From IMG/VR virus record IMGVR_UViG_3300028833_000094, positions 32,001-96,000 of that record: 64,000 nucleotides of DNA. The stretch is one strand, 5' to 3'. The notes beneath the pieces are model-generated. The model did not search any database, was not told the origin of the DNA, and worked only from the letters and a program-made list of their open reading frames with translations. The position numbers and the translations under genes were made by a program. This DNA comes from a virus (taxonomy: Duplodnaviria > Caudoviricetes). The stretch's first letter is position 1; the number at the start of each line of letters is the position of its first letter. Shown piece by piece: positions 10,262 through 56,452 of the stretch.

Positions 10262-10292
10262 TTTGGTATTATATTATTAGTTTGTATCTTTG
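10262..10292 (+). promoter_or_regulatory. Bacteroidota housekeeping-sigma promoter
   Basis: TTTG-N19-TATCTTTG. Confidence 0.8.
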
Positions 10293-10724: not shown

Positions 10725-10796
10725 TTCTTAGCATTATCCTAAGATTCATTGTACCTAAAAGATTGTTTCTTATTTTTGCAACAAAATAAGAAGAAT

Positions 10797-11405
10797 ATGA
10801 ATAAATATTTTATTGCAGCTATAGTGGTTCTCTTTGCTACCATAGGATTTATGTGGAAGCAAGTAAGGGATGCAAATGAGAAATGGAAGGTTTCTGAGGG
10901 TAATGTAAAGGCCTATGCATCCATGTTTGACAATAGCAAGAAACAGAATGCTGCTTTGCTATTGACTGTAGATCAGCTTGAATATTTCAAGGATTCTGTA
11001 CTTCAGGAGCTTGATGCTACCAGGAAGGAACTGAAGGTAAAGGATAAGGACTTAAAGGCTTTACAGCAGGTTAAGTCCAGTTTCTCCAGGACAGATACTA
11101 TTACAATAACCCAGGTGGATACTTTGTTTAAAGAACCCTCCTTGGCTATTGATACTGTATTGGGAGATGAATGGTATAAGCTTAATCTAGGACTTAAGTA
11201 TCCTTCTACGATTGCAGTAAAGCCATACTTTAAGAGTGAGAAACATATCGTAGTCTCCAGTAAGAAAGAGACTGTTAATCCTCCAAAGAAGTTCTTTCTT
11301 TTGAGATGGTTTCAGAAAAAGCATCGAGTTCTTCATATAGATGTTGTTGAGAAAAATCCTTATGTGAGTGATGAAACTAGTAGATACGTTGAGATTATCA
11401 GGTAA
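10797..11405 (+). CDS. membrane-anchored coiled-coil protein, DUF6549/spanin-like
   Basis: N-terminal TM (YFIAAIVVLFATIGFM), coiled coil, C-terminal KKFFLLRWFQKKH..VVEKNPY; promoter TATTTTTG at 10771. Confidence 0.6.
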   Translation: MNKYFIAAIVVLFATIGFMWKQVRDANEKWKVSEGNVKAYASMFDNSKKQNAALLLTVDQLEYFKDSVLQELDATRKELKVKDKDLKALQQVKSSFSRTDTITITQVDTLFKEPSLAIDTVLGDEWYKLNLGLKYPSTIAVKPYFKSEKHIVVSSKKETVNPPKKFFLLRWFQKKHRVLHIDVVEKNPYVSDETSRYVEIIR

Positions 11406-16061: not shown

Positions 16062-18308
16062 GTGATGGATAATGTAATTTTTAATAAATGCCAGACTCCC
16101 CTGGAAGAGCTGGAGCTAGGAAAGTATCCACAGGAGGTACAGGAGAATTTCTGGGACTTTATGAATAATGTTCCCTTTATCAGATGGATGGTTTCCCCTA
16201 ACAGGCCCCTTGTATCCCAGCTTCCAAGGGATGAGTTTGGCAGGGCTATCATAGATGTTACCAAGCCTCCTATATTAGAAGGTTCAGACTATTTCAGGCA
16301 ATCAGCCTTACAATGGCAGGAGAATGAAAAATACACCAACCTTAGACCTAATGCCAATCCTAACAGTGAATATGGAAGATGGATAAGAGAGGAGAGACAG
16401 AGAGGCTGGGAAGGCTTTGTCAATCCTGATACAGGTATGTGGGTAACAGGAGACTACTACTGGATGCTGAACTATTGTCCTATGCATTTGGTAGTAAAGA
16501 GAGATGATGGCTTTGAGATGCGTACTACCAGGCATCCAGGTTTCTGGGATGGGCAGTTTCTCCTTTCTCACTATGTTCTTCAGGCGAGACAACATAAGAA
16601 ACATGCAGATGCACTGGCCAGTCGTGGTAAAGGTAAGACCTCCTTTGGTGCTGGAATGCTTTCCAAGAGATTTGAGATAGGAGAGTTTGAGAATAACAGA
16701 AGTGAGGTGCAATGTATGGTTACTGCTACGGATAGGACCAAGCTGATAGGAACTAACCAGATACTCTCCGTCTTTGTAGATAACATAGACTTCTGTGCCA
16801 AGAACACACAGTTTGCTGCAAGAAGATTAAAGAGTAGTGTACAGGAGCTTGTATGGCAGTCAGGCTACAAGAAGTCAGGAAGTGATGTAGCCTATGGCAG
16901 TAAGAACTCAGTATCAGGTATTATCACAGGTGTCAATCAGGATAAGCTGAATGGTTCGCGTGGTGTACTTTATCTGATTGAGGAGGCAGGTATTTTCAAG
17001 AATCTAAGAGAGATGTATAACATGATCAGGCCTTCAGTAGAGCAAGGTTCCTCTGTATTCGGTGAAATCTATATGTATGGTACGGCTGGTGATGACCAGA
17101 GTGACTTTACAGCCTTTGCAGAAATGTTTTATTCTCCAGACGGTTATAACCTGTATGGACTGGAAAATGTATATGACAAGGAAGGTCAGGGCAGGAAGGA
17201 GTGTGGCTTCTTCTATCCAGCCTATATGAACTATGATGATACTTGTATAGACAAGGATGGTAATTCAGATGTCAGTAAGGCACTCTTGATGCTTTGTATG
17301 GACAGGTATAAAGTGAAGTATGGTTCAACAGATATCAATACTATTACCAAGCGTATTTCACAATATCCTATTACTCCACAGGAAGCTATCATCAGGAGTC
17401 AGGGAAATATGTTCCCTATTACAGAACTGAACAACAGGCTTAATCAGATAGATAATAATCCTAATGAGTATGATGATGTCTATGTAGGAGAGCTTATACA
17501 GGAAAAAGATGGTACTATACAATTCCAGCCCACAGGTGAGCTTCCCATCAGAGACTTTCCTACTAAGGATAATAAGGTAGTGGGAGCATTGGAAATATAT
17601 GAGATGCCTCAGAAGAACAGTGAAGGAAAGGTTCCTTATGACAGATATGGATTTGGATTGGACCCCTTTGATGATGATGAATCAGGTACTATGTCATTAG
17701 GAAGTATCTTTGTCATGGACTTCTGGACAGACAGGATAGTAGCAGAGTTTACAGGAAGGCCACAATTTGCCAATGACCTGTATGAGAAAGTGAGACTGCT
17801 ATGCCTATTCTATAACATGAAGGGACTCTATGAGAATAACTTAAAAGGTATTTTCTCCTATTTCAGTATGAGGAACTGTACCTATATGTTGGCTGATACT
17901 CCAGAGTACTTAAGAGACAGACAGCTTGTCACCTCTATTGGATATGGTAATAAGGCAAAAGGTGTAAGAGCTGTTACTCCTATTATCAAGGCAGGATTCA
18001 GGATGATCAGGGACTGGCTGCTTAAACCAGTTACCAAGATAGAGCATGATGCAGAAGGTAATGAGGTAGAAGTTACCGTACCCAATCTATATAATATAAG
18101 GAATAGGGCTTTGCTCAAAGAATTGATACAATGGAATCAATATGGTAACTTCGATAGAGTGATGGCCCTTGTACAATTGATGCTCTATAGGGAAGAGAAG
18201 ATGATTCTCTATCAGGGAGATATCAAGAGTGCGGAACATGTACCAACAGGTCTTGAGGCAGATGACTATTGGAGTAAGAATTATCCAGGGAAGAAAGACC
18301 AATGGTAA
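16062..18308 (+). CDS. terL: terminase large subunit
   Basis: Walker A ASRGKGKTS, Walker B YLIEEAG, motif III YGTAG, nuclease GLDPFDDD and NFDRVMAL. Confidence 0.92.
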   Translation: MMDNVIFNKCQTPLEELELGKYPQEVQENFWDFMNNVPFIRWMVSPNRPLVSQLPRDEFGRAIIDVTKPPILEGSDYFRQSALQWQENEKYTNLRPNANPNSEYGRWIREERQRGWEGFVNPDTGMWVTGDYYWMLNYCPMHLVVKRDDGFEMRTTRHPGFWDGQFLLSHYVLQARQHKKHADALASRGKGKTSFGAGMLSKRFEIGEFENNRSEVQCMVTATDRTKLIGTNQILSVFVDNIDFCAKNTQFAARRLKSSVQELVWQSGYKKSGSDVAYGSKNSVSGIITGVNQDKLNGSRGVLYLIEEAGIFKNLREMYNMIRPSVEQGSSVFGEIYMYGTAGDDQSDFTAFAEMFYSPDGYNLYGLENVYDKEGQGRKECGFFYPAYMNYDDTCIDKDGNSDVSKALLMLCMDRYKVKYGSTDINTITKRISQYPITPQEAIIRSQGNMFPITELNNRLNQIDNNPNEYDDVYVGELIQEKDGTIQFQPTGELPIRDFPTKDNKVVGALEIYEMPQKNSEGKVPYDRYGFGLDPFDDDESGTMSLGSIFVMDFWTDRIVAEFTGRPQFANDLYEKVRLLCLFYNMKGLYENNLKGIFSYFSMRNCTYMLADTPEYLRDRQLVTSIGYGNKAKGVRAVTPIIKAGFRMIRDWLLKPVTKIEHDAEGNEVEVTVPNLYNIRNRALLKELIQWNQYGNFDRVMALVQLMLYREEKMILYQGDIKSAEHVPTGLEADDYWSKNYPGKKDQW

Positions 18309-18434: not shown

Positions 18435-18467
18435 TTTGAGCAAAAGCCTTTCAAATCAGTACTTTTG
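18435..18467 (+). promoter_or_regulatory. promoter of capsid operon
   Basis: TTTG-N21-TACTTTTG. Confidence 0.75.
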
Positions 18468-19756: not shown

Positions 19757-21265
19757 ATGGGTAAATTAGGTAAATTTCAGAGTTTTGAGTTCGACAGCTG
19801 GGGAAAGACCAGTAAGTTGAACCACCTTGGTGGTATTTTCAGGTTGCATCCTCAGATGGCAACAGAGATGATGGTCCAGCTTTTGGCTTTCCATAAGGGT
19901 AAGACCTTGGACACATTCCTCTCACAGTTCCCCACTAAGGAATTTGACAGTGATGATGAGTACACCTGGCAGGTGATTGGTTCTATGGTTAAGAACCTTC
20001 CCCTTGTAGAAGCTCGTACTCTTGATGGCACAGTGGTAGCTGACAATGTAAATGCAGGTGCCAATGGTGAACCTTTCTATGTAGTATTTGATGAAGACCT
20101 GTTTGCTGATGGTGCAGTGATTGTTGGTGAGCTGAATGAAATCTATCCCCTCCGCATTTTGGGTGATGGCTATCGTGAAGGTACTAACATTCGCTATAAG
20201 GTACAGCTGATGGGTGGTGTTATTGGTGGTATGCCTGGTGAGCAGCTCCAGCCTGGTAAGAGGTTCTCTAAGGAGTATGCTCCTGTTGAGCGTGAGTTCT
20301 CTCGCAAGGTTGATGATATCACCTTCTCCAGTCCTATCATGATGCGTAATGAGTTCAGCTCTATCCGTATGCAGCATAAGGTATCTGGTGCTCTCATCAA
20401 CAAGAAGATTGCCTTTGGTATTCCTGTAGAAGTTCCCAACAATAATGGCTACACTGTCAAGACCTATGACATGTGGATGCACTATGAGCAGTGGGTACTT
20501 GAGCAGCAGTGGAATGCAGCTAAGAACAAGCTGATTGCTTATGGCCGTAGCAACCGCAACAAGAATGGTGAGTATCTTGACATTGGTAAGAGTGGTGAGG
20601 TTATTCGCATGGGTGCAGGTCTGTTCCAGCAGATGGAAGTTAACAACACAGACTTCTACAACAACTTCTCTCTGAAGAAGATTGAGGATGCCCTGTACAA
20701 CCTGAGTGCAGCTAATCTTGACATGAAAGACCGTGTATTCATCCTGAAGACTGGTGAGCGTGGTGCTGCCCAGTTCCATAAGGCAGCTCTTGATACTATC
20801 AGTGGCTGGCAAGCATTCACTACCAATGCAGACCAGATTGGTATGGTACGCAAGGTGAACTCTCCCCTGCATGACAATGCTTTGAGTATTGGTGCTCAGA
20901 TTGTTGAGTTCAAGGCTCCTAATGGTGTAACTGTACGTGTAGATGTAGATCCCATGTATGATGATCCTGTACGCAACAAGATTATGCATCCTAATGGTGG
21001 TCCTGCCTATTCTTACCGTTATGACATCTTTGACATTGGTACTATGGACCAGCCTAACATCTTCAAGGTAGGTGTCAAGGGTCAGGTAGGTGACTACACT
21101 TCTTATGAGTGGGGCTTCCGCAATCCATTCACTGGCAAGATGGGCAATGAGTACATGAGCCATGATGAGGATTCTGCAACTATTCACAAGTTCACTACTA
21201 CTGGTGTATGTGTTCTTGATCCTACAAGGACAATGAGCATTATTCCTGCAGTACTTCGTGGTTAA
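19757..21265 (+). CDS. major capsid protein (crAss-type)
   Basis: 502 aa, strong high-expression codon bias (CGT/GGT), GEVIRMGAGL..LKTGERG..DPMYDD pattern, followed by terminator. Confidence 0.85.
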   Translation: MGKLGKFQSFEFDSWGKTSKLNHLGGIFRLHPQMATEMMVQLLAFHKGKTLDTFLSQFPTKEFDSDDEYTWQVIGSMVKNLPLVEARTLDGTVVADNVNAGANGEPFYVVFDEDLFADGAVIVGELNEIYPLRILGDGYREGTNIRYKVQLMGGVIGGMPGEQLQPGKRFSKEYAPVEREFSRKVDDITFSSPIMMRNEFSSIRMQHKVSGALINKKIAFGIPVEVPNNNGYTVKTYDMWMHYEQWVLEQQWNAAKNKLIAYGRSNRNKNGEYLDIGKSGEVIRMGAGLFQQMEVNNTDFYNNFSLKKIEDALYNLSAANLDMKDRVFILKTGERGAAQFHKAALDTISGWQAFTTNADQIGMVRKVNSPLHDNALSIGAQIVEFKAPNGVTVRVDVDPMYDDPVRNKIMHPNGGPAYSYRYDIFDIGTMDQPNIFKVGVKGQVGDYTSYEWGFRNPFTGKMGNEYMSHDEDSATIHKFTTTGVCVLDPTRTMSIIPAVLRG

Positions 21266-25094: not shown

Positions 25095-26072
25095 ATGGCA
25101 AACTTTAGTGTAAATCAGGTACGACAGTTTTATGTACTGAATGGTGAGTATGCAGAGACAGTAACAGCTGCTTCCAATAATGGTACTATTGGTGGCCTGA
25201 AGGAAATTAAGGGTCTTCTTGGCCCAGAAGTTATGTTCTTCTATAAGGGAGCTGATAATGAGACTGTACTTCCCAGCGACATTATTCCTCTGAAGAATAT
25301 CACTTATGCAAAGGCTTACGCTGCTGCAGATTTGGCTACTAAGATGCGCAAGGTAAAGGTTACTCTTGCAATCACTCCTACTGCTGGTCAGGATTGTGTT
25401 CTGGGTATTAACTTCAAGAACTTCTTCAGCTCAGGTGATGCTTCTCAGTATTACAAGGATGCTGCTGTTCATGTAACCAGTGCAATGGTATCAGATGTCA
25501 AGGAATTCTATAAGGCAATGGTAGCTGAGCTTAATGCTTGCTTCAGCCGTGAGGATGGTGCAACTGCTACTACTAATCCTTATCTTACCTTCAGTGCTGG
25601 TACTGCAGGTTCAGAGGATGGTATCTATATTGAGGAGAAGCCTCAGGCTTGGAAGCTTGGTACCATGAAGGCTCGCAGGATTATGTTTGATGTTCTCCCT
25701 GGCACTGTTCTTGATAATGGTGATGATGTTATCTGGGGGACTGTAGCTGAGCAGACTCCTACCACTACTGTTAACAATGGTCAGCAGATTGCAGACCTTG
25801 AGTGGTTCTGTGCAGGTGAGCGTGGTGACCAGTATAGGATGAAGGGATGGCCTAACTATGTACATACTGACTATCTGGTAGATCCTACTCAGGCTTACAA
25901 TGTATTGGAGATTCACTATGCATTCACTGATACTGGTGTAAATAGCTACCGTACTGAGAAAGAGATTACCATTGTGGCAAAGACTGCAGCTCATCTGACT
26001 AGCTTCATTACAGCCTTCAATGCTTTGGATTCTGTAGAAGCTGCTGGATTTGCAATTGAAGGTCTTTCCTAA
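25095..26072 (+). CDS. auxiliary capsid protein
   Basis: synteny, high-expression codon bias, ADLEWFCAGERGD motif. Confidence 0.65.
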   Translation: MANFSVNQVRQFYVLNGEYAETVTAASNNGTIGGLKEIKGLLGPEVMFFYKGADNETVLPSDIIPLKNITYAKAYAAADLATKMRKVKVTLAITPTAGQDCVLGINFKNFFSSGDASQYYKDAAVHVTSAMVSDVKEFYKAMVAELNACFSREDGATATTNPYLTFSAGTAGSEDGIYIEEKPQAWKLGTMKARRIMFDVLPGTVLDNGDDVIWGTVAEQTPTTTVNNGQQIADLEWFCAGERGDQYRMKGWPNYVHTDYLVDPTQAYNVLEIHYAFTDTGVNSYRTEKEITIVAKTAAHLTSFITAFNALDSVEAAGFAIEGLS

Positions 26073-29705: not shown

Positions 29706-32700
29706 ATGAAAAGAGTAGAATCACATATATTCCAGGGAATGCAGAGAGATGTGAGTATCTCTAAGCAGCAGCCTCAGTTTCTATGGGATGCAGTAAATAT
29801 CAGACTGACAGCCAGAGAAGGTGATACCTTGATGAGTATTACCAATGAGAAGGGTTCTGTTGAAAGTGGTATATATTGTACAGGCTCCTATATGGGACAT
29901 TGTGTCATAGGTAATAACCTTGTAGTGTTCACTACAGATGATGGATATGATTATATCTACAGAATAACAAAGATGGAAGAAGGTTTCTTCAAAAAGAAGA
30001 AACTTTATGGTGGAAGTATAGGGCAACCAAGTCTTGGTTTTGACCCATCATATCCTCTTCAAACACTGGGTGTGTATGAGAATGAACATATCCAAAAAGT
30101 ATATTGGACAGATGGAATTAATCAGCCAAGAGTTATCAATATTGTAAAAGACCTTCTTAATTCTGCTGCAACTGAATATTACAATGAAAAGTCTTTTGAT
30201 TTTGTCCCTGAGATGCAGCTTGATGATTCTATTCATGTTAAAAAACTTAGTGACAGCAGCGGAAGCTTTCCCTCAGGTGTAATTCAGTATGCTGTTACCT
30301 ATTATAATAAATATGGGCAGCAGAGTAATATCAGCTGTGTATCTCCTCTGATACCTATCTCATTTTTTGGAAGAGCTGGAAGTCCTGAAGAAAAAGTAAG
30401 TAATTCATTTAGAATTGTAATTAATAATCCTGATACTACTTTTGAATATTTAAGACTTTACTCTATATTTAGAAGTAGCCTGAACGGTACTCCTATTTGT
30501 AAGAGAGTAGAAGATGTAAAATTAGGAGATGGAGGAACCAGCGGTACTTACTATAAAATGGAAACTTCTGGAACTATTATTTCTAATTATTTCTGGGTTA
30601 CAGGCGCTTACCAGGCTACTGAAAGTAATGGAGACCCTTTTAATCAATCTGGATTTGTATATACTGAGCATGTTCCCTATGTTAATAATGGCTCTTTTTT
30701 CCATATACAAAAGGGCAGCAGTACAGAACACCTAGTAATTAAAATAAAACAACAAAATAATACATATAAATATATTACCTGGGGTGATGCTACAGAAATT
30801 TTTATATCTAAAAACTCCTTAGCTGGAGGTGCTGGTACAGCATATTATGTTGTAGGAGCTGATGGCATGAATGAGACAGGTGATTTTAGAAATGCAGCGA
30901 ATTTATTTATATCCACAGAAGAAATACAATATGTAGAGAAAAGAACTGTGGAGAATGTTACTATTACCGATAATGGTAGTATTGGAGAAAATATTGATCC
31001 ACAGGAGTTGTTTTATATTGGAGGTGATGAAATCGTTGCAGAAACTATAGAATCTAAAGATGGAACTTTGTTTTTGGGTAATATTGTACTAAAGCAAGCT
31101 CAAATAGAAAGTTTAAAGAGTAGTATTAAAAATGGTGTAACTATTACTAACAACAATACAAGACAAGTTTCCAGAGCTATTGCTTTAAATAGTAATAATT
31201 ATAAATGGGGAAGTTCTCTAAATTCAACGGGAGCTGATGATTATGCTACTAATCCTGCAGGATTTAAGTATGGGGAGCATTACAGACTTGGTGTTCAATT
31301 TCAATACAAGAATGGAAAATGGAGTGAGCCTGTATATATACCTAATATGTCTGGTAATACTGATATAGGAAGTTATATATGTAATGAAAATCCTGAATAT
31401 AATGAAAGTTCTAGTTCAAGTAGTTCTGAGGTATATAACATCCCATGTTTTAAAGGTGTTTTAAGTAGTGATATTAGGATTGCTTTACAGAGTAAAGGAT
31501 ATAAAAGAGTAAGAGGAGTTGTGGTTTTTCCTACAACTTCAGATAGACTTATTCTGGCACAGGGAATATTAAATCCTACTGTGTCTTGTGTTACTGCTCA
31601 TGATCAACATTCTCCTGATTATCAAAGTTCTTGGTTTTTCAGACCTTGGATCTCTTCAAGTTTTAATAATGATAGTAATATATTAGAAGGAGCTGTAGTT
31701 GAATGGGAACACAATACTAAGTTATTTGGTTTCAATGACAGAGGTGCAGAAATACAGGGATTGCCAGTAAACTATACCAATTGGAGTATGATGGGCAACA
31801 CTATTAATTTTGGAGGAGGGCCTTTTAGTCCTGTTTATTTTGATAATGTTAATATTGGAAATAAAAATAATCCCAAATATGTGACAGTTAGACAAGATTT
31901 AGCAGATAGTGTTTTCTATGTAGACCAACAATATGTTACTATGCATTCTCCTGAATTTGAGTTTGAGGATTCCTTGAAGAATTTAGATTTCATAGAAACA
32001 TCTCTTAGGAAACGAGGATATGTACAGTTTAATGCAAATGTTGGAGATATATTCATAGAAACATCTACTCCTCCCATCGGTAAAAGCAGCACAGGGTTTG
32101 TACGTAAAGTTATGAACTGGGGAGGAACTGGGGCTTGTAGAAGACTATGTGCTGGATTATTCTATAATGATTGGCTTGTAGATGAAAATGTCAATGACAA
32201 TAAGAATCTTTATGCTGAATTCCCACATCAAGGCTATGAGGTAGGATTTATGGTTTATCCCTGGAATAAATCAGGTTCTTTGAATAATGACTGTAACAGA
32301 CCAGCAGAAGCTGGGGTGAGAAGTGCTGTGCTAAAAAGAAAGATTATTTCTAATATGCTTTACAGTAGGCAGACTTCTTTTGTATCTAGTTCAGATATTC
32401 CCATGCCATCTACATCTACTCCGAAGTTATTTGATTTGGATCAGATAGGTCTTGTGAAATTAGGAGGTAATACAAATTATTATGGTAATATAGATACCTT
32501 ATTAGGAGCTATGGCACCTTTTGGTTCTATTATTAGTACTGGAGAAAATATATGGAAAATAAATAAGAGTGACTATAACGATATGAAAGAATATGGTTCT
32601 GGGCAATATAAGCCTACAGAAGATTATATGTCGTATAGTACTCATATTTTTAATTCCCGTAAAAATTACTTTTGGAAAGGAGTAGAAAAAGGGTTTGAGC

Positions 32701-39341: not shown

Positions 39342-41759
39342 ATGAGTTACTTATATAATGGTTTTCCACCTCAGCAGTTGTCTTTCAGCAGGAAGAATAA
39401 AGCCTGGAGAAAGAAGTGTGTGGATTTTGGTGACAACCATAGTATCATGCATCATCATGTAGCCAGGAAGTCATGGTATGGCATGAAGATTAACTATGAC
39501 TTGCTGAATGGTATTCTTCACATGGAAGACCTGAAGGCATTGGTAAATCCTTATGGACTAAATGCTTCCTTTATACCTGATAAAATCCAACACTACAGTA
39601 TCATCAATTCCAAGTTGAATGTACTCAGGGGAGAAGAAGCTAACAGGTTGTTTGACCCAAGGGTAGTGGTGACTAATCCAAGTGCCATTACCTTGATGGA
39701 AGAAGAAAAGAACCGTCAGGTAAATATAGCTCTTCAGCAATTGATTCAGGATACTTCCCAGAGTGAGGAGGATTTCCAAAGAGAGTTAGACAGGTTGAAT
39801 ACCTATTTCAAGTATCAGTACCAGGACAAGAGGGAAGTAGAGGGAAACTATTTCCTTAACCACTACAGGAAAGAACTGGAGATAGACCAGAAATTCAACC
39901 AGGGATTTGTAGATGGCTATGCTGTAGGAGAAGAAGCCTATCAGTGTGATATTATTGGAGGAGAGCCTACTTTTGAGAAGATAAATCTCTTGGAGATGAG
40001 GGTCCTGATGAGTGGCTATTCCAACAAGATAGAAGATGCTGACATGATTATCCTGGAAGGCTATAGGAATCCTGGTTCTGTAATAGATGCCTACTATGAT
40101 GTGCTTTCAGCCAAAGATATCAAAGCCATTGAGGAAGGTTCAGGAAGTGTATATAGCAATGCATCAGACTCTATGGATAACATAGATGCAAGAGTAGGTA
40201 ACCCACTCAGGAGTCTGGTAGGACTTGACTTCCTTGGAAACCATTGGGAAGCAGGAGAAAGGGTGATGACACCTGCAGACCTATTTGCAGATGATAATAT
40301 GAGTACACTGACTCCCTATGACATGAATGGTAATGTCAGGGTATTGAAGGTATACTGGAAGTCAAGAAGAAAGATTAAGAAAGTAAAGAGCTATGACCCT
40401 GTAACAGGAGAAGAAGAATTCAATTTCTATCCTGAGACCTATTACTGTGACCCTGATAAGGGAGAAGAAGAACAGATATTCTGGGTAAATGAAGCATGGG
40501 AAGGAACTAAGATTGGTGCTGATATCTATGTAAACATGAGACCCAGGCCTGTACAGTATAACTCTATGAGTAATCCTTCAAGATGTCACTTTGGTATTGT
40601 GGGCAGTATCTATTCAACCAATGGATATGAGCCTTTCTCTATGGTGGATATCATGAAGCCCTATGCCTATCTCTATGACATTATTAATGACAGGTTGAAT
40701 AAGACCTTGGCAAAGAATGTAGGTAAGGTTATCAGGTTAGACTTTGCTAAAGTTCCTAAGGGATGGGATGCAGATAAATGGCTGTACTATATCAATGTGA
40801 ATGGTGTAGCTGTAGAGAACTCATGGAATGAAGGAGATGTAGGAGCAGCTACAGGAAGGCTTGCAGCCAGTCTGAATAATGCTTCCAGTGGTGTGATTGA
40901 TGCTTCATTAGGTAATGAGATTCAGAGTTATATCTCCATGCTAGAATGGATTAGCAATAAAATAGGAGACTTGTCAGGTATCTCCAGGCAGAGAGAAGGA
41001 CAGATTTCCAACAGGGAGACTGTAGGAGGAGTAGAAAGGGCTACCCTTCAGAGTTCACACAGTACCCAATGGCTGTTTACCTATCATGATAGTGTGAAGA
41101 AGAGAGCTTTGGAATGCTTCCTTGAAACAGCCAAGATAGCCTATAAGGGAAGGAAAATCAAGTTTGACTACATCATGAATGATGGTTTCAAGAAGACCAT
41201 TGAGATTGATGGAGATGACTTTGCAGAATGTGACTATGGTCTGGTAGTAGATTTGGGCAATGATGTACAGGAGCTTAACCAGAACCTTGGACAGCTTGCT
41301 CAGGCAGGTCTGCAGAATGATAAGATGAACTTCTCTACCCTGATAAAGATATATACTACCAAGAGTGTATCTGAGCGCATGAGACTCATTGAGGCTTATG
41401 AGGAGCAGGCAATGATGCAGCAGCAGCAACAGCAGCAAATGCAACAGCAGCAGTTTGAACAGCAGTTGCAGCAGCAGGCACAGCTTGAACAGGCTAAGGC
41501 TGAAAGAGAGTATCAGATGCATCAGGAAGATAATGAGACTAAGCTGCTTGTTGCTGAGATTAATTCTCAGGCAGAGGCCCAGAGATTTGCCATGATGAAC
41601 CATGACAATGATGAGGCCAATGCTATTGAAAGGGAAAAGATTGCTGAAAATGCAAGGCAGTTTGATGAGAAGCTTTCCCTTGATAAGAAGAAGCAGGCAG
41701 ATGATGCAAGACTTAAGGAGAAACAGATTAATGTCACTAAGCAGAAGAAATCATCATAA
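39342..41759 (+). CDS. portal protein (crAss-type)
   Basis: 805 aa; FPPQQL..W; IQHYSIINSKLNVLRGEE; WVNEAWEGTKIG; SMVDIMKPY..YD; GISRQREG..ETVGGVER; Q-rich C-terminal barrel helix. Confidence 0.85.
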   Translation: MSYLYNGFPPQQLSFSRKNKAWRKKCVDFGDNHSIMHHHVARKSWYGMKINYDLLNGILHMEDLKALVNPYGLNASFIPDKIQHYSIINSKLNVLRGEEANRLFDPRVVVTNPSAITLMEEEKNRQVNIALQQLIQDTSQSEEDFQRELDRLNTYFKYQYQDKREVEGNYFLNHYRKELEIDQKFNQGFVDGYAVGEEAYQCDIIGGEPTFEKINLLEMRVLMSGYSNKIEDADMIILEGYRNPGSVIDAYYDVLSAKDIKAIEEGSGSVYSNASDSMDNIDARVGNPLRSLVGLDFLGNHWEAGERVMTPADLFADDNMSTLTPYDMNGNVRVLKVYWKSRRKIKKVKSYDPVTGEEEFNFYPETYYCDPDKGEEEQIFWVNEAWEGTKIGADIYVNMRPRPVQYNSMSNPSRCHFGIVGSIYSTNGYEPFSMVDIMKPYAYLYDIINDRLNKTLAKNVGKVIRLDFAKVPKGWDADKWLYYINVNGVAVENSWNEGDVGAATGRLAASLNNASSGVIDASLGNEIQSYISMLEWISNKIGDLSGISRQREGQISNRETVGGVERATLQSSHSTQWLFTYHDSVKKRALECFLETAKIAYKGRKIKFDYIMNDGFKKTIEIDGDDFAECDYGLVVDLGNDVQELNQNLGQLAQAGLQNDKMNFSTLIKIYTTKSVSERMRLIEAYEEQAMMQQQQQQQMQQQQFEQQLQQQAQLEQAKAEREYQMHQEDNETKLLVAEINSQAEAQRFAMMNHDNDEANAIEREKIAENARQFDEKLSLDKKKQADDARLKEKQINVTKQKKSS

Positions 41760-50098: not shown

Positions 50099-51706
50099 TT
50101 ACTTATGCTTCCATTTTCTAGCATTTAATGCAAAGGTGGCCATCTTCTTTTGAGCAGGAGTTCCATGAGCTTTAAACCAAGAAGTAGAATGTCCTGTTCT
50201 CTTTTTTAAAGCAGTGAATTTTCCTCTATTTTCAGGCTTTATATGGATACCTCCTCCTTTGGAGAAGGGGTTGCCTGTAAGTAATCCTATGGTACTGAGG
50301 AAGGAATCTTCTTCTTGAGGATATGGATTGGTGAGATTCAGGATTCTATTAAAAGTAGAAAGCCTGTTCATTCTCTCTTGCCTATCTATTTCCTCTGGAC
50401 TGTATGGGGATATAACTACTGGCTCTTGAACTTCTGGCTCTTCAACAACTACAGGTTGCTGATAGGTATCAGGGGTAGCAAAGAAAACTTCTGGATTGAA
50501 GGGAGTGAATGGGATAGGGGATTCTAGGAATTCCTGGGATATACTGGGATTTATGGGGGCTATGGGAGTAGTGGGAGGGGTAGAAGGCTTAGCAGAAGCT
50601 ATAGGCTGATTGTTAAATCTCACTGTTCCCATACCAGCCCTGCTTCTCATGCCATTGATATAATTCTGCATGTGCTGTCTCTGGGCAGCTTTCCATTGAG
50701 GACTCTTCGGGTCATACTTCACTTTGTCTGTAACATAGTAAAGATAGCCTTTACCAGCAGTTTCTGGATTACCTAAGATAGTAGCATATTCATCAATATT
50801 CTTAGCTCCTAATGCAGACTTAAACTTGGAATTCATCATCTTCCATTTATCCTGCATATAGTCCTCTACAGTATTGTATTTAATGTTCTTACCTCCTCTC
50901 TGCATACCACCAAAGTTATTCTTTTCTCTGGCAGCATTGCTTTTTCCTCCAGCACTTTCAAGGTCATCCTGTGCTGTGAAGAACCCAGAAAGTCTTGCAG
51001 AATCTGCATCGCTTAATCCTTTATTCTTAAGAAAGTTATACCACCTGTTCTGATGTTGCTGATACCATCCTGATGTAACTTTCTTCTTTGGACCACCTTT
51101 AACAAACTTATTACCATATATAGTAACATTAGGCAGAACTCCTCCCCAAGGAATACCATCATAAATAGGTAGGCTACCATCAGCTTCTCGGAGCTGTACC
51201 CCATTATCTTCAGCATTCTCCAAATACCATTTCCTATCATCCATACTGACAGGTCCTCTATAACCATCGGGAGACATAGTAAAGACTTTATAGTCTGGAG
51301 ACCATGTTCCACCTGTTAGTCCTTTAGGATTGGTTTTGGGATTTCTTACTCCTGAGTAAATACTACCATCATTTCCAATACTCTTTGAACTAAATGTAGG
51401 ATGATATACTGTTTTAAACTCATCAGAGAAATGTGCAGTAGGATCACCATTCAGCATTTTCCAGGCTTCTTCGGGATACTTATTAAAGAAAGCTTCATAG
51501 TCATAGGTATTGTCTTCATCAGGCTTAATACCCATGTATTCTGATATCTGTTTCTTCCAGCCATTATAGCTCCAATCAGTATCTCCACCTTCAGCAAATT
51601 CATTGTATTCTCTCTTAATATCTTGAAGATTAGTAATACCATTCTTGACAGCTACTCTCATCATAGCTGCCTTCTCAGTCAAAGATAAATTATCCCAATT
51701 ACCCAT
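50099..51706 (-). CDS. modular virion-associated protein with GH73/glucosaminidase-like domain
   Basis: AQDDLESAGG..NNFGGM..Y..VEDY lysozyme-fold motif; C-terminal GGGIHIKPENRGKF..FALNARKWKH; FxxGG repeats; promoter TACTTTTG at 51725-51732 (-). Confidence 0.6.
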   Translation of the reverse strand: MGNWDNLSLTEKAAMMRVAVKNGITNLQDIKREYNEFAEGGDTDWSYNGWKKQISEYMGIKPDEDNTYDYEAFFNKYPEEAWKMLNGDPTAHFSDEFKTVYHPTFSSKSIGNDGSIYSGVRNPKTNPKGLTGGTWSPDYKVFTMSPDGYRGPVSMDDRKWYLENAEDNGVQLREADGSLPIYDGIPWGGVLPNVTIYGNKFVKGGPKKKVTSGWYQQHQNRWYNFLKNKGLSDADSARLSGFFTAQDDLESAGGKSNAAREKNNFGGMQRGGKNIKYNTVEDYMQDKWKMMNSKFKSALGAKNIDEYATILGNPETAGKGYLYYVTDKVKYDPKSPQWKAAQRQHMQNYINGMRSRAGMGTVRFNNQPIASAKPSTPPTTPIAPINPSISQEFLESPIPFTPFNPEVFFATPDTYQQPVVVEEPEVQEPVVISPYSPEEIDRQERMNRLSTFNRILNLTNPYPQEEDSFLSTIGLLTGNPFSKGGGIHIKPENRGKFTALKKRTGHSTSWFKAHGTPAQKKMATFALNARKWKHK

Positions 51707-51859
51707 AGTTAATCTCTTTTGCTGCAAAAGTAAAAAATTCCCGTGATAGTACCAAAACCTTACGGGATTTCTTATTCATTTAGAAAGTATTTATTAGGGA
51801 TTCAGTTAAAAGGATACAGGATATTTGGTTATCCAGTACCTTTGTGCTGGAGATAAGAT

Positions 51860-52066
51860 ATGGTGTTCATAATTCTCTATATGATAGGAGTGCTGGTTGC
51901 ATGGGTACAACTGCAGTACTGGTTTAAGGACAGGATACTTCTCAATGAAGACTTTCAAGTCCTTACAGCCCTGAGTTTCCTGTCCTGGCTGGTATATCCT
52001 ATATATCTGATAGCTTATTTAATGGATTACTTAGACAGTAGCGAAGATGACAGTAAACGCGATTGA
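51860..52066 (+). CDS. small 2-TM membrane protein
   Basis: hydrophobic segments; promoter TACCTTTG at 51837. Confidence 0.65.
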   Translation: MVFIILYMIGVLVAWVQLQYWFKDRILLNEDFQVLTALSFLSWLVYPIYLIAYLMDYLDSSEDDSKRD

Positions 52067-52433
52067 GCAAGGAATTTCTCAAAAATGGAAAGATAGATTC
52101 CAGTACGGAGCAGCTGGGTTTTTGATAATTACGGCAGTTACATTGGCCTTTGTCTCCTTTATTATCACCCTGACAGTAGGAGCAGGAGTGATAGCATGGG
52201 GAGGTCTGTCAATGGGAACTGCCTTAACGTTGATAGGTGGTGGAATGTACTTCCATAATCAACTGGTCACTTTTGAAACCAATGCCAACAGGAAGATGGA
52301 AGAAGTGACAACTCATGTAGAAAAGGAGATTAGAAGGATGAATCAGAAGCCCAGCAGGTATTCAAGAATGTCTCCTGAAATGCCAGAGAAAGATTACTTT
52401 GACCCAGAAGAGCAAGACTTAGATGGACAGTAA
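52047..52433 (+). CDS. probable holin
   Basis: two TM helices, charged C-terminus, overlaps amidase start. Confidence 0.6.
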   Translation: MTVNAIEQGISQKWKDRFQYGAAGFLIITAVTLAFVSFIITLTVGAGVIAWGGLSMGTALTLIGGGMYFHNQLVTFETNANRKMEEVTTHVEKEIRRMNQKPSRYSRMSPEMPEKDYFDPEEQDLDGQ

Positions 52434-53073
52434 AAGCAATTTCATTATTATATTAGGTACAGCTCACAGGATGAGAGAGCCAGGGAAACAGTCTCCTGAT
52501 GGCAGGTTAAAGGAGTGTATCTATTCAAGGGAAATTGCTTCAGAAGTAGCAGCTAAGCTCAGAGCTTATGGTTATAAGGTGGAGGTAGACTATATGCCAT
52601 TGGACTTACCAAAGACTATGCAGTCACCTAACTATAAGCAGGAGCGGAGTAATGAGCTGGCTATGAGAGTTAACTATGTAAATGAGGTATGTAGGCAGCA
52701 TGGAGCTAAGAATGTGCTGTATGTGAGTATTCATGTTAATGCCATAGGTAATGATGGTAAGTGGCACAATGCCTGTGGGTGGCAGGTGAATGTCAGTAAC
52801 AATGCCTCACAGAACAGTAAGAGACTTGCAGAATGTTTCTTTGATGCAGCCTCAGCTCATGGTTTGAAGACAAGGAAGCCTACAGCAACTCAGAAATATT
52901 GGCCTCAAAGTCTTTATGTATTGAACAATACCAAATGTCCTGCTGTCCTTACAGAGAATCTATTCCAGGATAATAAGCAGGATACAGAATATCTTTTGTC
53001 AGATGTAGGGAAGCATCAGATAGAGAGAATCCATGTAGAAGGAATTATTAGTTATCTAAATAATAGGGTGTAA
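52423..53073 (+). CDS. N-acetylmuramoyl-L-alanine amidase (Amidase_3) endolysin
   Basis: IILGTAH..GKQSPDG..E; VSIHVNA; PAVLTEN Zn and catalytic motifs. Confidence 0.88.
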   Translation: MDSKSNFIIILGTAHRMREPGKQSPDGRLKECIYSREIASEVAAKLRAYGYKVEVDYMPLDLPKTMQSPNYKQERSNELAMRVNYVNEVCRQHGAKNVLYVSIHVNAIGNDGKWHNACGWQVNVSNNASQNSKRLAECFFDAASAHGLKTRKPTATQKYWPQSLYVLNNTKCPAVLTENLFQDNKQDTEYLLSDVGKHQIERIHVEGIISYLNNRV

Positions 53074-53171: not shown

Positions 53172-53202
53172 AAAAGGGAGGCTGTGAAGTTTCCCTTTTT
53201 TA
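53172..53202 (+). terminator. intrinsic terminator with GUGA loop
   Basis: AAAAGGGAGGCT-GTGA-AGTTTCCCTTTT-TT. Confidence 0.75.
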
Positions 53203-53290
53203 TTTAGCTGCGATATAATCGCAACATACTCTATGTATTATCCTGTTAACTTGCTGAGAGCTAGCAGGTTTTTTGTATTTATTGGCATTG

Positions 53291-53322
53291 TTTGAGGAGC
53301 CTTTTATTTGTGCCTATCTTTG
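53291..53322 (+). promoter_or_regulatory. promoter of the CCC-protein cassette
   Basis: TTTG-N20-TATCTTTG. Confidence 0.75.
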
Positions 53323-53405
53323 CAATGTTCTTGCAAGGATAATGCTGTAGTTAAACTGCAGCCTACTGACAAATTAATTTTTTAACCGATTAAAATTTTA
53401 GAACA

Positions 53406-54386
53406 ATGGCACAAAATGAAGGTGTTTATGTTTTCCCAGATGCAATGGCAAAAGCTTCTGGTATTGATCCTGGTCTGCTTGCACTGTTGAACCAGAATGG
53501 TGGTTTTGGTGGTAATGGCAACTGGATTTGGATTCTCTTCCTCTGGTTCCTTTATGGTAACAATGGTTGGGGAAATAATGGTTTTGGCAGTAACAATGGT
53601 ACTGGTTATCTTGCCAATCAGATTTCTAACTCAGAAGGTCGTGATTTACTGTTGCAGGCTATTAATGGCAGAGCTGATGCTGCTGCTCAGTTGGCAAGTA
53701 TTACTAACACATCTGTAGAGACTGTGAAGAATGGTATCTTCTCTCTACAGAATTCCATCAACCAGGTAGGTAATCAGGTAGGTCTCTCTGGAATGCAGAC
53801 TATCAATGCTATCCAGGCTGGTGATGCTGCCCTTGGAAGACAGTTGTGTGAGTGCTGCTGCAATATGAGGTATGACCTTTCTCAGCAGACCAATGCTTTA
53901 CAGGCTCAGGCAGCTAATAACTTTGCTGCTTCACAACTCCAGGCTGCTCAGAATCAAGCTGCTACACAGCTTCAGATGGCTCAGATTGAAAGTGCAGACC
54001 AGCTTGCTGTATGTCAGCAGACTAATGCCCTCTCTTCTCAGGCTGCCAATAACACCAATAATATCCTTGGTGCTATTCAGGCCCAGAATGCTATGATTAC
54101 CAAGGAATTCTGTGACCTTAAGGAGCGTGAACTCCAGAATAAGATTGATACACAGGGTGACATCATTACCCAGTTGAGGAATCAGATTTCCAATGACCAT
54201 CAGACTCTGCAATTCAATGCTGCCTTCCATGCACTGGATGATAAGGTAGATGCTATTGCTGCCAAGCAGCCAAATACTGTACCAGTAACTTGGCCTAATC
54301 TTGTGGCAGTGAACAACACTCCTTATGTTGGTGGTGGATTCAATCCTTGGGGATATGCATCAGGTGGTACTAGCTATTGGGGATAA
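53406..54386 (+). CDS. Gly/Asn-rich, Trp-rich hydrophobic segment plus Q/A/N coiled-coil protein with CECCC
   Basis: GGFGGNGNWIWILFLWFLYGNNGWG; LCECCC; heptads; high-expression codon bias. Confidence 0.8.
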   Translation: MAQNEGVYVFPDAMAKASGIDPGLLALLNQNGGFGGNGNWIWILFLWFLYGNNGWGNNGFGSNNGTGYLANQISNSEGRDLLLQAINGRADAAAQLASITNTSVETVKNGIFSLQNSINQVGNQVGLSGMQTINAIQAGDAALGRQLCECCCNMRYDLSQQTNALQAQAANNFAASQLQAAQNQAATQLQMAQIESADQLAVCQQTNALSSQAANNTNNILGAIQAQNAMITKEFCDLKERELQNKIDTQGDIITQLRNQISNDHQTLQFNAAFHALDDKVDAIAAKQPNTVPVTWPNLVAVNNTPYVGGGFNPWGYASGGTSYWG

Positions 54387-54403
54387 TTAAAAGGTTTTGA
54401 GCA

Positions 54404-54739
54404 ATGGCAAGATTTCCATATCAGTATGCCAATATCAATGGCATCCCATGTATCAAAACCCAATCTGTAGCAGTATCAGACACAGCTGTTACCTTTAAGT
54501 TTGCTCCTGACTTTGACGGAAGACCTTTCAGAGGATTGATTCTGGTCTATATCTCTGAGGCTATTCCTGAAGGAACTACAACCACTCTGCCTATACAGTT
54601 CTCTATGGCTGGTATCACCAGTACACTGACTGCAGCAGGTGGAGCCAATGTAACAGTAGCAGACTTACCTGGAACAGGAATCTATCTGGTTTACTTTGAC
54701 AGGTGGGCAGATACATTACAGTTAATGAGTAATATCTAG
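54404..54739 (+). CDS. small beta-sandwich protein
   Basis: alternating beta pattern; GIYLVYFD C-terminus. Confidence 0.75.
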   Translation: MARFPYQYANINGIPCIKTQSVAVSDTAVTFKFAPDFDGRPFRGLILVYISEAIPEGTTTTLPIQFSMAGITSTLTAAGGANVTVADLPGTGIYLVYFDRWADTLQLMSNI

Positions 54740-54764
54740 TGAGTAATTTTTAAAGTTAATAACC

Positions 54765-55253
54765 ATGTTTTCAAATTTAAGCAAAGGCAGTGTCTTGTAT
54801 GGACTTGAGACTAAGGGAGAGATAAAACTGTTTACAGCCCCTATAGAAAGTGTGAGCCTGCCTTATCCCAAACAGAGAAGCAATATTTTCGGACAGATGC
54901 CAGAAATGGTAGTGGATATAGTTGCCACAGTGAATGGTGAAAGGAAAGAGTTCAAGCAAGTGCCTAGTAACAGTGCTATTGCTGACTTTGGTAATGATAC
55001 TTTTGTATTGGCTGATGGCAGAGATTCTCTCAATGGTCATGTGAATTCCATGCTACAGAACAGTAGAAATATTGTGAATAGTGTGGAGAAGCACAAGGCA
55101 TTGATTTCCCAGTATGAAGATGTACTTGGCTATCTCAATCCTGGACAGGCTAATGACAGTGCTGTAAAGGAACTGAGAGGTCAGGTAGAAGATATGAAGA
55201 CTCAAATGGCAGAGATGCTGTCTTTGCTTAAAGAGAAGACATCCAGTAAATAG
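54765..55253 (+). CDS. beta-domain plus coiled-coil protein
   Basis: MFSNLSKGSVLY.. with C-terminal heptads. Confidence 0.75.
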   Translation: MFSNLSKGSVLYGLETKGEIKLFTAPIESVSLPYPKQRSNIFGQMPEMVVDIVATVNGERKEFKQVPSNSAIADFGNDTFVLADGRDSLNGHVNSMLQNSRNIVNSVEKHKALISQYEDVLGYLNPGQANDSAVKELRGQVEDMKTQMAEMLSLLKEKTSSK

Positions 55254-55262
55254 TTCAAGATT

Positions 55263-55487
55263 ATGATGGTAATTAAATTTAGAAGCAGTGAGGAACATGA
55301 GGACCTGCTGAAGAAAGTGAAGAAGATGAAGAAATTCACTGAGGATTTGGAGGAATGCCTTGAAGAGGCTATGGAGGATGATTTTGAGTATCGTGGTGGC
55401 AGTTATCGCAAGGAATATGATGAGGATGACATGAAGCACTATGAGAGGATGAATGGTCGCTATGGCTATCGTAAGGGCAGAATGTAA
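55263..55487 (+). CDS. small charged protein with R/G/Y-rich tail
   Basis: YRGGSYR..GRYGYRKGRM. Confidence 0.7.
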   Translation: MMVIKFRSSEEHEDLLKKVKKMKKFTEDLEECLEEAMEDDFEYRGGSYRKEYDEDDMKHYERMNGRYGYRKGRM

Positions 55488-55541
55488 TTAATCAGGGTGG
55501 GGTGGATAGTATCCACCTCATCCATTTAAAACCTTATAGCT

Positions 55542-55958
55542 ATGTATTTCAGAAACACTGGTAGTTATGATGAGATTCCTGAAGGAATGAAGCTGTACCT
55601 TAATAACTATGGCTGTCATTTCAACAAGAAGCTCTGTATGGAGGCAGTAAGCAGGATGTACACAGAGGAGAATGGTAAGAAGAAGAAACTGAAGCCTTAT
55701 ACAAAGGAACAGGTGGATGACTTGCTTTCTTCCTATGACATAGAGCTGAAACATAATAAGATGTATGATGCTTGTTATGTTGCCAATATGTGTGCAAATG
55801 ATTTCCTTGAGAAGTCTGTACCTGATGAGAAGCATCTGGCTATGTATGTAAAGGACTTACTGGATGATCCTGATGCTGAAGAAGGATTTGTGTTTAACAG
55901 ATTCTATGCTGATACTATGTTTATGAACAATCCTATTGATTGGGAGGAAATGGTTTAA
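55542..55958 (+). CDS. helical protein, paralog of 9901..10212
   Basis: YGCHFNKKLC..YVANM..DDPD..F.RFYAD..IDWEEM. Confidence 0.75.
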   Translation: MYFRNTGSYDEIPEGMKLYLNNYGCHFNKKLCMEAVSRMYTEENGKKKKLKPYTKEQVDDLLSSYDIELKHNKMYDACYVANMCANDFLEKSVPDEKHLAMYVKDLLDDPDAEEGFVFNRFYADTMFMNNPIDWEEMV

Positions 55959-55989
55959 GTAGTCACATAGTGACTACCTACTGTAAATT

Positions 55990-56382
55990 ATGGTTAGACA
56001 GCAATTTAGTGTGGAGTCCTATTGGGAAGTGATAGTATACTATAATATAAACTTCAGATTTCTGGACTCCATCACTAAAGAGCTGAAAGAGATGGGTGTA
56101 ACTGCAGCATCTATCAAGGAAGTCTTTGCCATGTTATATCATAGGAGGGCAAAGGCAGTAACCTATAGTAATATAGAGAAGCACATCAGTATAGTCTTAT
56201 TCAATACACATACTTCCAGGAGAGACTATATCAATTCCATTGTACATGAAGCAGAGCATGTAAAGCAAGCTATGCTGAATGCCTATGATGTAGAGGATAG
56301 GGGAGAACCACCAGCCTATACCATTGGGTATTTAGTATCCCAGATGTTTAGGGTATTTAATAAGCTTCTTTATTGTAGTTAA
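55990..56382 (+). CDS. HExxH metallopeptidase-like protein
   Basis: IVHEAEH followed by EPPAYTIG. Confidence 0.6.
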   Translation: MVRQQFSVESYWEVIVYYNINFRFLDSITKELKEMGVTAASIKEVFAMLYHRRAKAVTYSNIEKHISIVLFNTHTSRRDYINSIVHEAEHVKQAMLNAYDVEDRGEPPAYTIGYLVSQMFRVFNKLLYCS

Positions 56383-56452
56383 GGGATTTCTTTAAAAGCC
56401 CTGTAATTCCGTAATTAGTCTCTACTTTTGTAGAGGTTAAATTTTTATTACT

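Follow-up and report, generated by a model that had tools for sequence, protein, structure and literature searches.

A mobile six-gene operon of Bacteroidales phages built around a predicted coiled-coil protein: a tentative assignment to late, envelope-acting functions in lysis or egress

The viruses of the human and animal gut are dominated by crAss-like phages and other phages of Bacteroidales, for most of whose genes no function is known. Here we analyze a cassette of six genes (g1 to g6) from a crAss-like tailed virus (Duplodnaviria; Caudoviricetes), encoded within positions 32,001 to 96,000 of the complete, 116,467-base IMG/VR record IMGVR_UViG_3300028833_000094. This stretch of 64,000 nucleotides is referred to as the window, and positions are those of the window unless indicated otherwise. 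The analysis confirmed that the region 53406-56382 is a real, self-contained operon of six tightly spaced genes on the plus strand, separated by 9-54 bases in the list of open reading frames (ORFs; Table 1), and comparison with other genomes revealed that the six genes constitute one autonomous, horizontally mobile operon of Bacteroidales phages. The cassette matches no described system. Our best explanation, which is a tentative one, is that it serves as a late, envelope-acting accessory of lysis or egress, organized around a membrane-anchored, Cys-stapled coiled-coil stalk formed by the g1 product.

Searches with g1 retrieved 63 loci from IMG/VR (denoted below with the prefix L), of which 50 extend at least 3 kb past the g1 start and were used for the count of gene order. 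The order is kept in all 50, on contigs of 30-212 kb and at 30-86% identity of g1. g5 was detected in 50/50 loci and is the most constant member of the block, g3 and g6 were found in 47 each, and the g2 and g4 slots, including those in which the window alleles give no tblastn match, always contain ORFs of about 112 and 72 aa. The first-pass annotation, made from the sequence of the window alone, had taken the six genes as one module, and the neighborhood survey bears this out: the genes do co-occur elsewhere and do not resolve to known unrelated functions. A chance juxtaposition of unrelated small ORFs, or of miscalled ones, is refuted by the synteny survey and is exceedingly improbable; the only point in its favor is that no member has a characterized homolog, against which stand the colinearity at such divergence, the assignment of g1, g2, g3, g5 and g6 to catalogued PHROGs (all annotated as of unknown function), the abundance of g1 (more than 6,300 clusters at 90% identity and 628 at 50% identity), the confidently predicted fold of g3 and the invariant catalytic residues of g6.

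Analysis of the genomic neighborhood revealed that the block abuts or sits inside a holin/endolysin/DUF6549 cluster in at least 9 different gene arrangements, many of them unrelated, beside at least 5 types of endolysin; as a lower bound, 19-23 of 71 loci have a recognizable lysis gene within the fetched flanks. In the window the cassette is preceded by holin-like genes and an Amidase_3 endolysin (PF01520, E-value 3.5e-20; phrog_435, endolysin). In cr273_1 the cassette is followed by one gene and then an endolysin, in L015 by an M15 peptidase, and in L025, L034 and L041 by DUF6549, one gene, a PG_binding_1+Amidase_2 protein, a scaffold-sized gene and the capsid gene, while in L071 a fibre gene and Amidase_2 precede the cassette, which lies further on. 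Among the annotated genomes, cr1_1 shows the order holin, DUF6549-like, g5-g4 fusion, g1, g2, g3, one gene and a transpeptidase-fold protein; cr4_1 shows endolysin, holin, g5-g4 fusion, g1, g2 and g3; cr116_1 shows holin, L,D-carboxypeptidase, helix-turn-helix (HTH) protein and cassette; and PD691P3 shows g1-like, g3-like, g4-g5 fusion, holin, endolysin and DUF6549. In both BF503P2 and PD691P3 the DUF7841 domain, to which g5 belongs (see below), is encoded directly ahead of a Phage_holin_4_1 gene, followed by endolysin and DUF6549. The window encodes a DUF6549-like protein of its own (Table 1), homologous to the product of the gene beside the holin in cr1_1 (E-value 6e-14) and of the post-endolysin gene of Parabacteroides phages; by its sequence it is a candidate spanin-equivalent of Bacteroidales phages. 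Neither DUF6549 nor DUF7841 is mentioned in the literature searched.

Cassette genes carry in-frame TAG codons in 17 of 66 loci (L001, L002, L018, L030, L032, L036, L038, L051-L053, L055, L057, L058, L061-L063, L066), with 1-8 codons and up to eight of them in g1, which means that these 17 phages read TAG as a sense codon; the cassette of the window has none. In crAss-like phages, only late structural and lysis genes show the recoding of TAG to Gln (10.1101/2021.08.26.457843; PMC9523058). When codon use is referenced to the capsid genes, high adaptation values are seen for g1 (0.785, rank 3 of 37 genes), g5 (0.784) and g4 (0.771), compared with which the endolysin reaches 0.658 and the holin-like gene 0.493, and in locus L025 g4 (0.753) and g1 (0.672) again show the highest values. 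From the TAG recoding, the capsid-like codon use and a predicted promoter of the type also seen ahead of the capsid operon, the operon is assigned to the late class, and the products of g1, g4 and g5 are probably abundant. A motif-peptide search of the supplements of the crAss metaproteome paper returned no cassette peptide, with carriage of the block by the two phages concerned not being established. The late (TAG-recoded) class and the embedding in lysis clusters, like the g4-g5 unit described below, go beyond what the first-pass annotation contained.

In the g1 family (alignment A1, 46 sequences) the N-terminal tail is conserved, with the pattern FP...G.DP..LLA..NGGFGG, and leads into a hydrophobic 13-mer (mean Kyte-Doolittle value 2.0) that is either Trp/Phe-rich or Gly-zipper-like and is flanked by G/N-rich spacers. 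Further conserved blocks (NND.GR.LLMQAINGN and VGNQ.G.S..QVINAIQSGN) are accompanied by an invariant CCC cluster (residues 150-152). The Q/N/A-rich helix that follows is variable, and beyond it lie the conserved strand KQPNTVPV.YP and a G/Y tail with FW or CGC at its end. In the window protein, the G/N-rich stretch 29-75 surrounds the peptide WIWILFLWFLY, with the putative anchor segment of the aromatic/Gly-zipper type at about residues 49-60, Cys residues at positions 148, 150, 151 and 152 (CECCC), 203 and 236, an A/Q/N-rich helix at 141-287 and a G/P/W/Y-rich tail at 288-326. The AlphaFold2 (AF2) model (predicted local distance difference test score, pLDDT, 69) comprises a helical bundle (67-138) and a single helix of 147 residues (141-287), the heptad core of which is poorly hydrophobic (43% in the best register). 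The long helix, the capsid-like codon bias and the membrane insertion of g1 had all been proposed in the first-pass annotation; the first two are borne out by the model and by the codon analysis, and the third is made plausible by the hydrophobic 13-mer, the flanking charges of which leave the topology ambiguous. A near-repeat QQTNAL(Q/S).QAANN occurs twice in g1 (53883-53921 and 54015-54053, i.e. residues 160-172 and 204-216), with the copies 44 residues apart; the segment between them is an insertion relative to most homologs in the alignment, which indicates that the length of the stalk varies among phages.

The wide VIA search with g1 reported coiled coils of reovirus sigma1 (Z-score 7.6-8.2) and UspA1 (Z-score about 8), Foldseek searches of pdb and BFVD reported nothing below an E-value of 0.004, and neither the PDB sequence search with single sequences of g1, g5 and g6 nor the ESM Atlas search with g3 and g1 gave anything usable. 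For the trimeric, fusion-protein-like or amyloid-like structure suggested in the first-pass annotation the fold searches yielded generic coiled coils only, and the virion cloaking or persistence suggested there finds no support in the results. Labels assigned by depositors in the manner of HHpred read "spike" or "viral fiber". These labels and matches could mean that the cassette encodes a virion accessory, in which g1 would form a coiled-coil fibre, whisker or needle or act as a membrane-inserting ejection protein, with g2-g5 as tip or assembly factors and g6 as a maturation peptidase. Such a role would agree with the finding, in two genomes, that the codon use of g1, g4 and g5 is adapted in a capsid-like manner, with the late, TAG-recoded class, with the large fibre-like, tail ring/hub, portal and capsid genes that are frequent neighbors, and with the swapping of g2, g3 and g6 alleles, typical of host-contact genes. 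A long heptad-like helix, a Gly-flanked hydrophobic peptide near the N-terminus, high predicted expression and a dispensable accessory character are features that g1 also has in common with trimeric coiled-coil virion fibres (T4 fibritin, phi29 gp8.5, reovirus sigma1) and with class I fusion proteins. However, the matches with Z-scores of about 8 are generic for long helices, no solved virion protein was matched by fold or sequence, g1 has no receptor-binding or foldon-like domain, and its Gly-zipper/aromatic hydrophobic segment would be unusual in an external fibre; the phages that carry the cassette have no viral membrane. Moreover, the block is often preceded by an HTH regulator of its own, and it moves among crAss-type and unrelated phages of 47-151 kb, which would require rematching of the attachment sites on the particle each time. 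We regard a role in the virion as unlikely.

The remaining five proteins have no signal peptide in their ORF translations. g2, taken for a beta-sandwich in the first-pass annotation, is beta-rich by sequence and occurs as several divergent types of alleles, many of them starting with M-x-C-C (alignment A3); its homolog in cr1_1 was identified by hhalign (96%), and neither a PDB profile search nor a test of 25 homologs detected relatives outside the cassette. A hint of similarity to the C-terminal domain of the type IX secretion system (E-value 0.088) was reproduced in 0/25 homologs and was dropped. In the AF2 model of g3 (pLDDT 84.5), residues 1-85 form an SH3-like/KOW-like barrel and residues 86-160 two long helices, in agreement with the beta plus coiled-coil protein expected from the first reading. 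Its top VIA matches are to domain I of EF-P/eIF5A (Z-score 6.3-7.2 over about 60 residues) and are uninformative as to function, since the barrel is a common, generic fold; the Foldseek search of pdb with g3 gave nothing usable. g4 was recognized correctly in the first pass as a peptide with an R/G/Y-rich tail, which follows an acidic helix. g5 belongs to the Pfam family DUF7841 (PF25223; 93.4 bits, E-value 1.4e-26, profile positions 2-113 of 114, gathering threshold 25.2 bits). Fusions of a g4-like sequence and DUF7841 in a single protein were found in L068:4281-6387 (PD691P3), L072:4955-5698 (cr1_1) and L073:5126-5752 (cr4_1). The PD691P3 protein has a His/acid-rich and possibly g4-like extension on the N-terminal side of DUF7841, and in the proteins of cr4_1 and cr1_1 an acidic segment and an R/G/Y tail come after this domain. 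The occurrence of fusions in both orders argues that g4 and g5 function as a single physical unit.

g6 exhibits the HExxH motif noted in the first pass, in the form HEAEH, together with a downstream Glu as expected of gluzincin-like zincins; H86, E87, H90 and E106 are invariant in 23/23 aligned homologs (19-60% identity). The comparison with MPTase-PolyVal (PF18818) yielded 14.9 bits, below the gathering threshold of 27.5; 3 of the 23 family members match this profile, the best of them with an E-value of 8.5e-4, and g6 also touches the SprT and IrrE models weakly. It resembles the small zincins (MPTase-PolyVal, SprT-like, IrrE/M78) in the invariant HExxH and downstream Glu, the length of about 130 aa and the beta-rich N-terminal half, but it scores far under the curated cut-offs and is encoded as a standalone protein and not within a polyvalent one. 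The profile of g6 matched unnamed proteins only, and PDB profile searches with g6 and g2 gave nothing usable. These residues and profile scores suggest that g6 is very probably an active minimal zincin outside any named family. It is not a core member, as the cassettes of cr1_1, cr4_1 and PD691P3 lack it, and the processing protease proposed in the first-pass annotation can therefore not be central to the module. Apart from DUF7841 (g5) and the small zincin (g6), none of the cassette proteins shows a match to a known system in sequence or fold. Searches of the cassette proteins against PADLOC reported no match better than an E-value of 0.001 and those against NCBIfam nothing usable; a match of g4 to SspG in PADLOC (15.6 bits) is compositional, and a known anti-phage defence system was dropped as a candidate since the PADLOC models remained unmatched.

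Taking the neighborhood and the protein features together, we tentatively propose that g1 is made in abundance and anchored in the inner membrane through its short aromatic/Gly-zipper segment, from which a Q/N/A-rich coiled coil of roughly 22 nm would extend, its chains stapled through the invariant CCC cluster by disulfides or metal. The conserved beta-strand motif and the aromatic/Gly tail at the end of the stalk could contact the wall or the outer membrane; g2, g3 and the g4-g5 unit would be soluble partners of g1, and g6 an optional peptidase that might trim a partner or an envelope protein. The i-spanin Rz requires intermolecular disulfides, and both Rz and the T4 holin T are bitopic lysis proteins; the predicted layout of g1, in which a hydrophobic anchor is combined with a long helix that bears conserved Cys residues, resembles theirs. 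Late expression and linkage to holin and endolysin are further points of similarity between the cassette and spanins (lambda Rz/Rz1, T1 gp11), and the predicted length of the g1 coiled coil would span the periplasm. However, Rz is only half as large as g1, the N-terminus of g1 carries a conserved tail of 45 residues, the five presumed soluble partners of g1 have no counterpart among spanins, and a separate spanin-like DUF6549 gene co-occurs with the cassette. A two-component spanin of the Rz/Rz1 type was rejected, as the cassettes contain no conserved lipobox partner ORF (a regular-expression scan of the three plus-strand frames in 36 cassettes found none in 35, and the single match, in L060, looks like chance), and so was a unimolecular spanin of the T1 gp11 type, as g1 has neither a lipobox nor a C-terminal membrane segment.

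Holins are typically small proteins of about 60-220 aa that cross the membrane at least once, have a charged C-terminus and are encoded beside the endolysin. g1 adjoins the endolysin in the window, but it has 326 aa and an uncharged tail, other small membrane proteins hold the holin position, and no match to a Pfam holin family was found. With the T4 holin T and its antiholins RI/RIII, g1 would share a bitopic arrangement, in which a short N-terminal tail and a large C-terminal domain flank a single membrane segment, as well as regulation by small soluble or periplasmic partners and the logic of lysis timing. It reveals no similarity to T in sequence or fold, though, the C-terminal part being a long helix rather than a globular domain, and small holin-like genes are already present.

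Several observations weigh against an accessory of lysis or egress. The link to lysis is one of guilt by association, and it is weakened by the possibility that the linkage is positional, since lysis genes usually lie at the tail/lysis junction, which is a common insertion site; the immediate neighbors of the cassette (detailed below) are heterogeneous. Five of the six proteins have neither a signal peptide nor a membrane segment, and we know of no lysis system that needs such soluble proteins. The codon adaptation of g1, g4 and g5, at the level of capsid genes and above that of the endolysin and the holin-like gene, would better fit a stoichiometric structural protein. The hydrophobic segment of g1 has only about 13 residues, with flanking charges that fix no topology. 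g1 is not a replacement of DUF6549, given the co-occurrence of the two, and phages without the cassette, e.g. crAss001, evidently lyse their hosts. A further reading, which we consider rather doubtful, is that the cassette is an undescribed envelope machine specific to Bacteroidales phages, with the Cys-stapled, inner-membrane-anchored g1 stalk, g2, g3 and the g4-g5 unit as soluble cofactors and g6 as an optional zincin, which would control or carry out an exit step outside the holin-endolysin-spanin scheme, for instance one that would breach the outer membrane or the capsule, or time lysis in the persistent infections by crAss-like phages.

Among annotated records, carriers of the block were found in three families of Crassvirales, namely Suoliviridae (cr273_1, cr52_1, cr4_1, cr1_1), Steigviridae (cr116_1) and Intestiviridae (cr271_1), as well as outside this order, in Bacteroides phage C3_41T2LP (74 kb), csAssE-Sib (151 kb) and Dulem virus 40, with a reduced block in Parabacteroides phages of about 47 kb. 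The statement, in the first-pass annotation, that similar clusters recur in unrelated gut phages proved right, as did its placement of the cassette outside the crAss core, the latter because cultured phages of the crAss001 type give no cassette match. A megablast search of phage records with the whole block and a single scan of genome contigs for prophage or bacterial copies both returned nothing. The alleles are mosaic: compared with g1-g6 of the window, those of L005 show 86/86/50/65/78/60% identity and those of L011 73/35/65/68/67/53%. The immediate neighbors vary between HTH_17, tail ring and hub, portal, capsid, integrase, methylase, TnpB, antirepressor and lysis enzymes.

A pair of genes (e.g. 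L016:5189-5832, L025:5177-5853) immediately precedes the cassette in about 25 loci and comes after it in a few. One encodes a multi-pass membrane protein of about 125 aa with the motif FKFC.(W/Y)HR, the other an HTH_17 (excisionase/MerR-like) protein of about 95 aa; the copy in the genome of the window is located at G000:C1:96310-97164, 310-1164 bases past the window end and about 8 kb downstream of the cassette. The pair may serve the operon as its dedicated regulator or as a partner of the holin type.

Patchy spread over three Crassvirales families and other phages, mosaic alleles, variable insertion sites with integrase, methylase, TnpB or antirepressor neighbors, a promoter and terminators of its own and the linked HTH_17 and membrane proteins are also features of a moron-type module. 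In such a module a membrane-tethered g1 scaffold with its peptidase would exclude superinfecting phages, mask receptors or counter host defence by remodelling the envelope or cytoplasm of the infected cell, and the weak resemblance of g6 to the zincins of injected polyvalent proteins (see above) points the same way. We nonetheless find it improbable: the late class and the very high codon adaptation are unusual for early-acting exclusion or anti-defence genes, PADLOC and NCBIfam remained unmatched, and g6 is dispensable in several lineages.

The block is extremely common in gut viromes, strongly expressed by the codon-use proxy and kept as a unit across phage families. If it does act in lysis or egress, it would add a new component to the holin/endolysin/spanin scheme in a major bacterial phylum and could bear on the coexistence of crAss-like phages with hosts that they do not clear; if it is instead a virion appendage or an exclusion module, it would represent a portable device for host interaction. 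Cultivable carriers are available (C3_41T2LP on Bacteroides uniformis, PD691P3 and relatives on Parabacteroides distasonis), which makes the question directly testable whichever reading holds.

The transcription signals (Table 1) agree with the first-pass annotation, which had given the cassette its own promoter and an upstream terminator: a predicted promoter of the Bacteroides type and two terminator-like hairpins precede g1. All the features of the six genes listed in that annotation are present as well. The Bacteroides -33/-7 pattern matches 6 times in the window, against 1.5 expected, and one of these matches precedes the capsid operon, at 18435. The Rfam scan of the cassette region found no known RNA. 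The earlier placement of the cassette between lysis and fibre genes holds on the upstream side, where the Amidase_3 endolysin lies; downstream there is a protein of 1214 aa, the sole match of which is phrog_20680, of unknown function.

Table 1. Genes and predicted signals of the cassette and other features of the window
Feature	Position	Strand	Remarks
g1	53406-54386	+	326 aa; phrog_16490
g2	54404-54739	+	111 aa; phrog_31654
g3	54765-55253	+	162 aa; phrog_28898
g4	55263-55487	+	74 aa; acidic helix and R/G/Y-rich basic tail
g5	55542-55958	+	138 aa, helical; phrog_38431
g6	55990-56382	+	130 aa; putative minimal zincin, HEAEH and E106; optional member; PHROG 1365
Terminator-like hairpin 1	53172-53199	+	12-bp stem and T-run; -15.4 kcal/mol, z -3.8; ends the holin/endolysin unit
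Terminator-like hairpin 2	53248-53270	+	9-bp stem and T-run; -10 kcal/mol, z -1.8
Predicted Bacteroides-type promoter	53291-53322	+	pattern match: -33 TTTG / -7 TAtcTTTG (consensus TAnnTTTG)
Terminator-like hairpin closing the operon after g6	56415-56440	+	z -3.0
Two small membrane proteins and Amidase_3 endolysin	51860-53073	+	directly upstream of the cassette; membrane proteins holin-like by position only
DUF6549-like bitopic coiled-coil protein	10749-11405	+	beside integrase, 41 kb from holin/endolysin; TAnnTTTG promoter match at 10262-10292
Terminase gene	16062-18308
Capsid gene	19757-21265
Portal gene	39342-41759

Two other genes of the window deserve mention. A gene for a protein of 542 aa (50099-51727, minus strand), located between a 2138-aa protein and the lysis genes, has no PHROG match and is associated with its own match to the Bacteroides-type promoter (51725-51756); a homolog lies just downstream of the cassette in L005, and short opposite-strand matches were found upstream of the cassette in L004, L033 and L048. 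The product of 25095-26072 (plus strand, 325 aa), likewise with no PHROG match, shows the highest capsid-referenced codon adaptation of the window (0.831) and is probably a major component of the virion.

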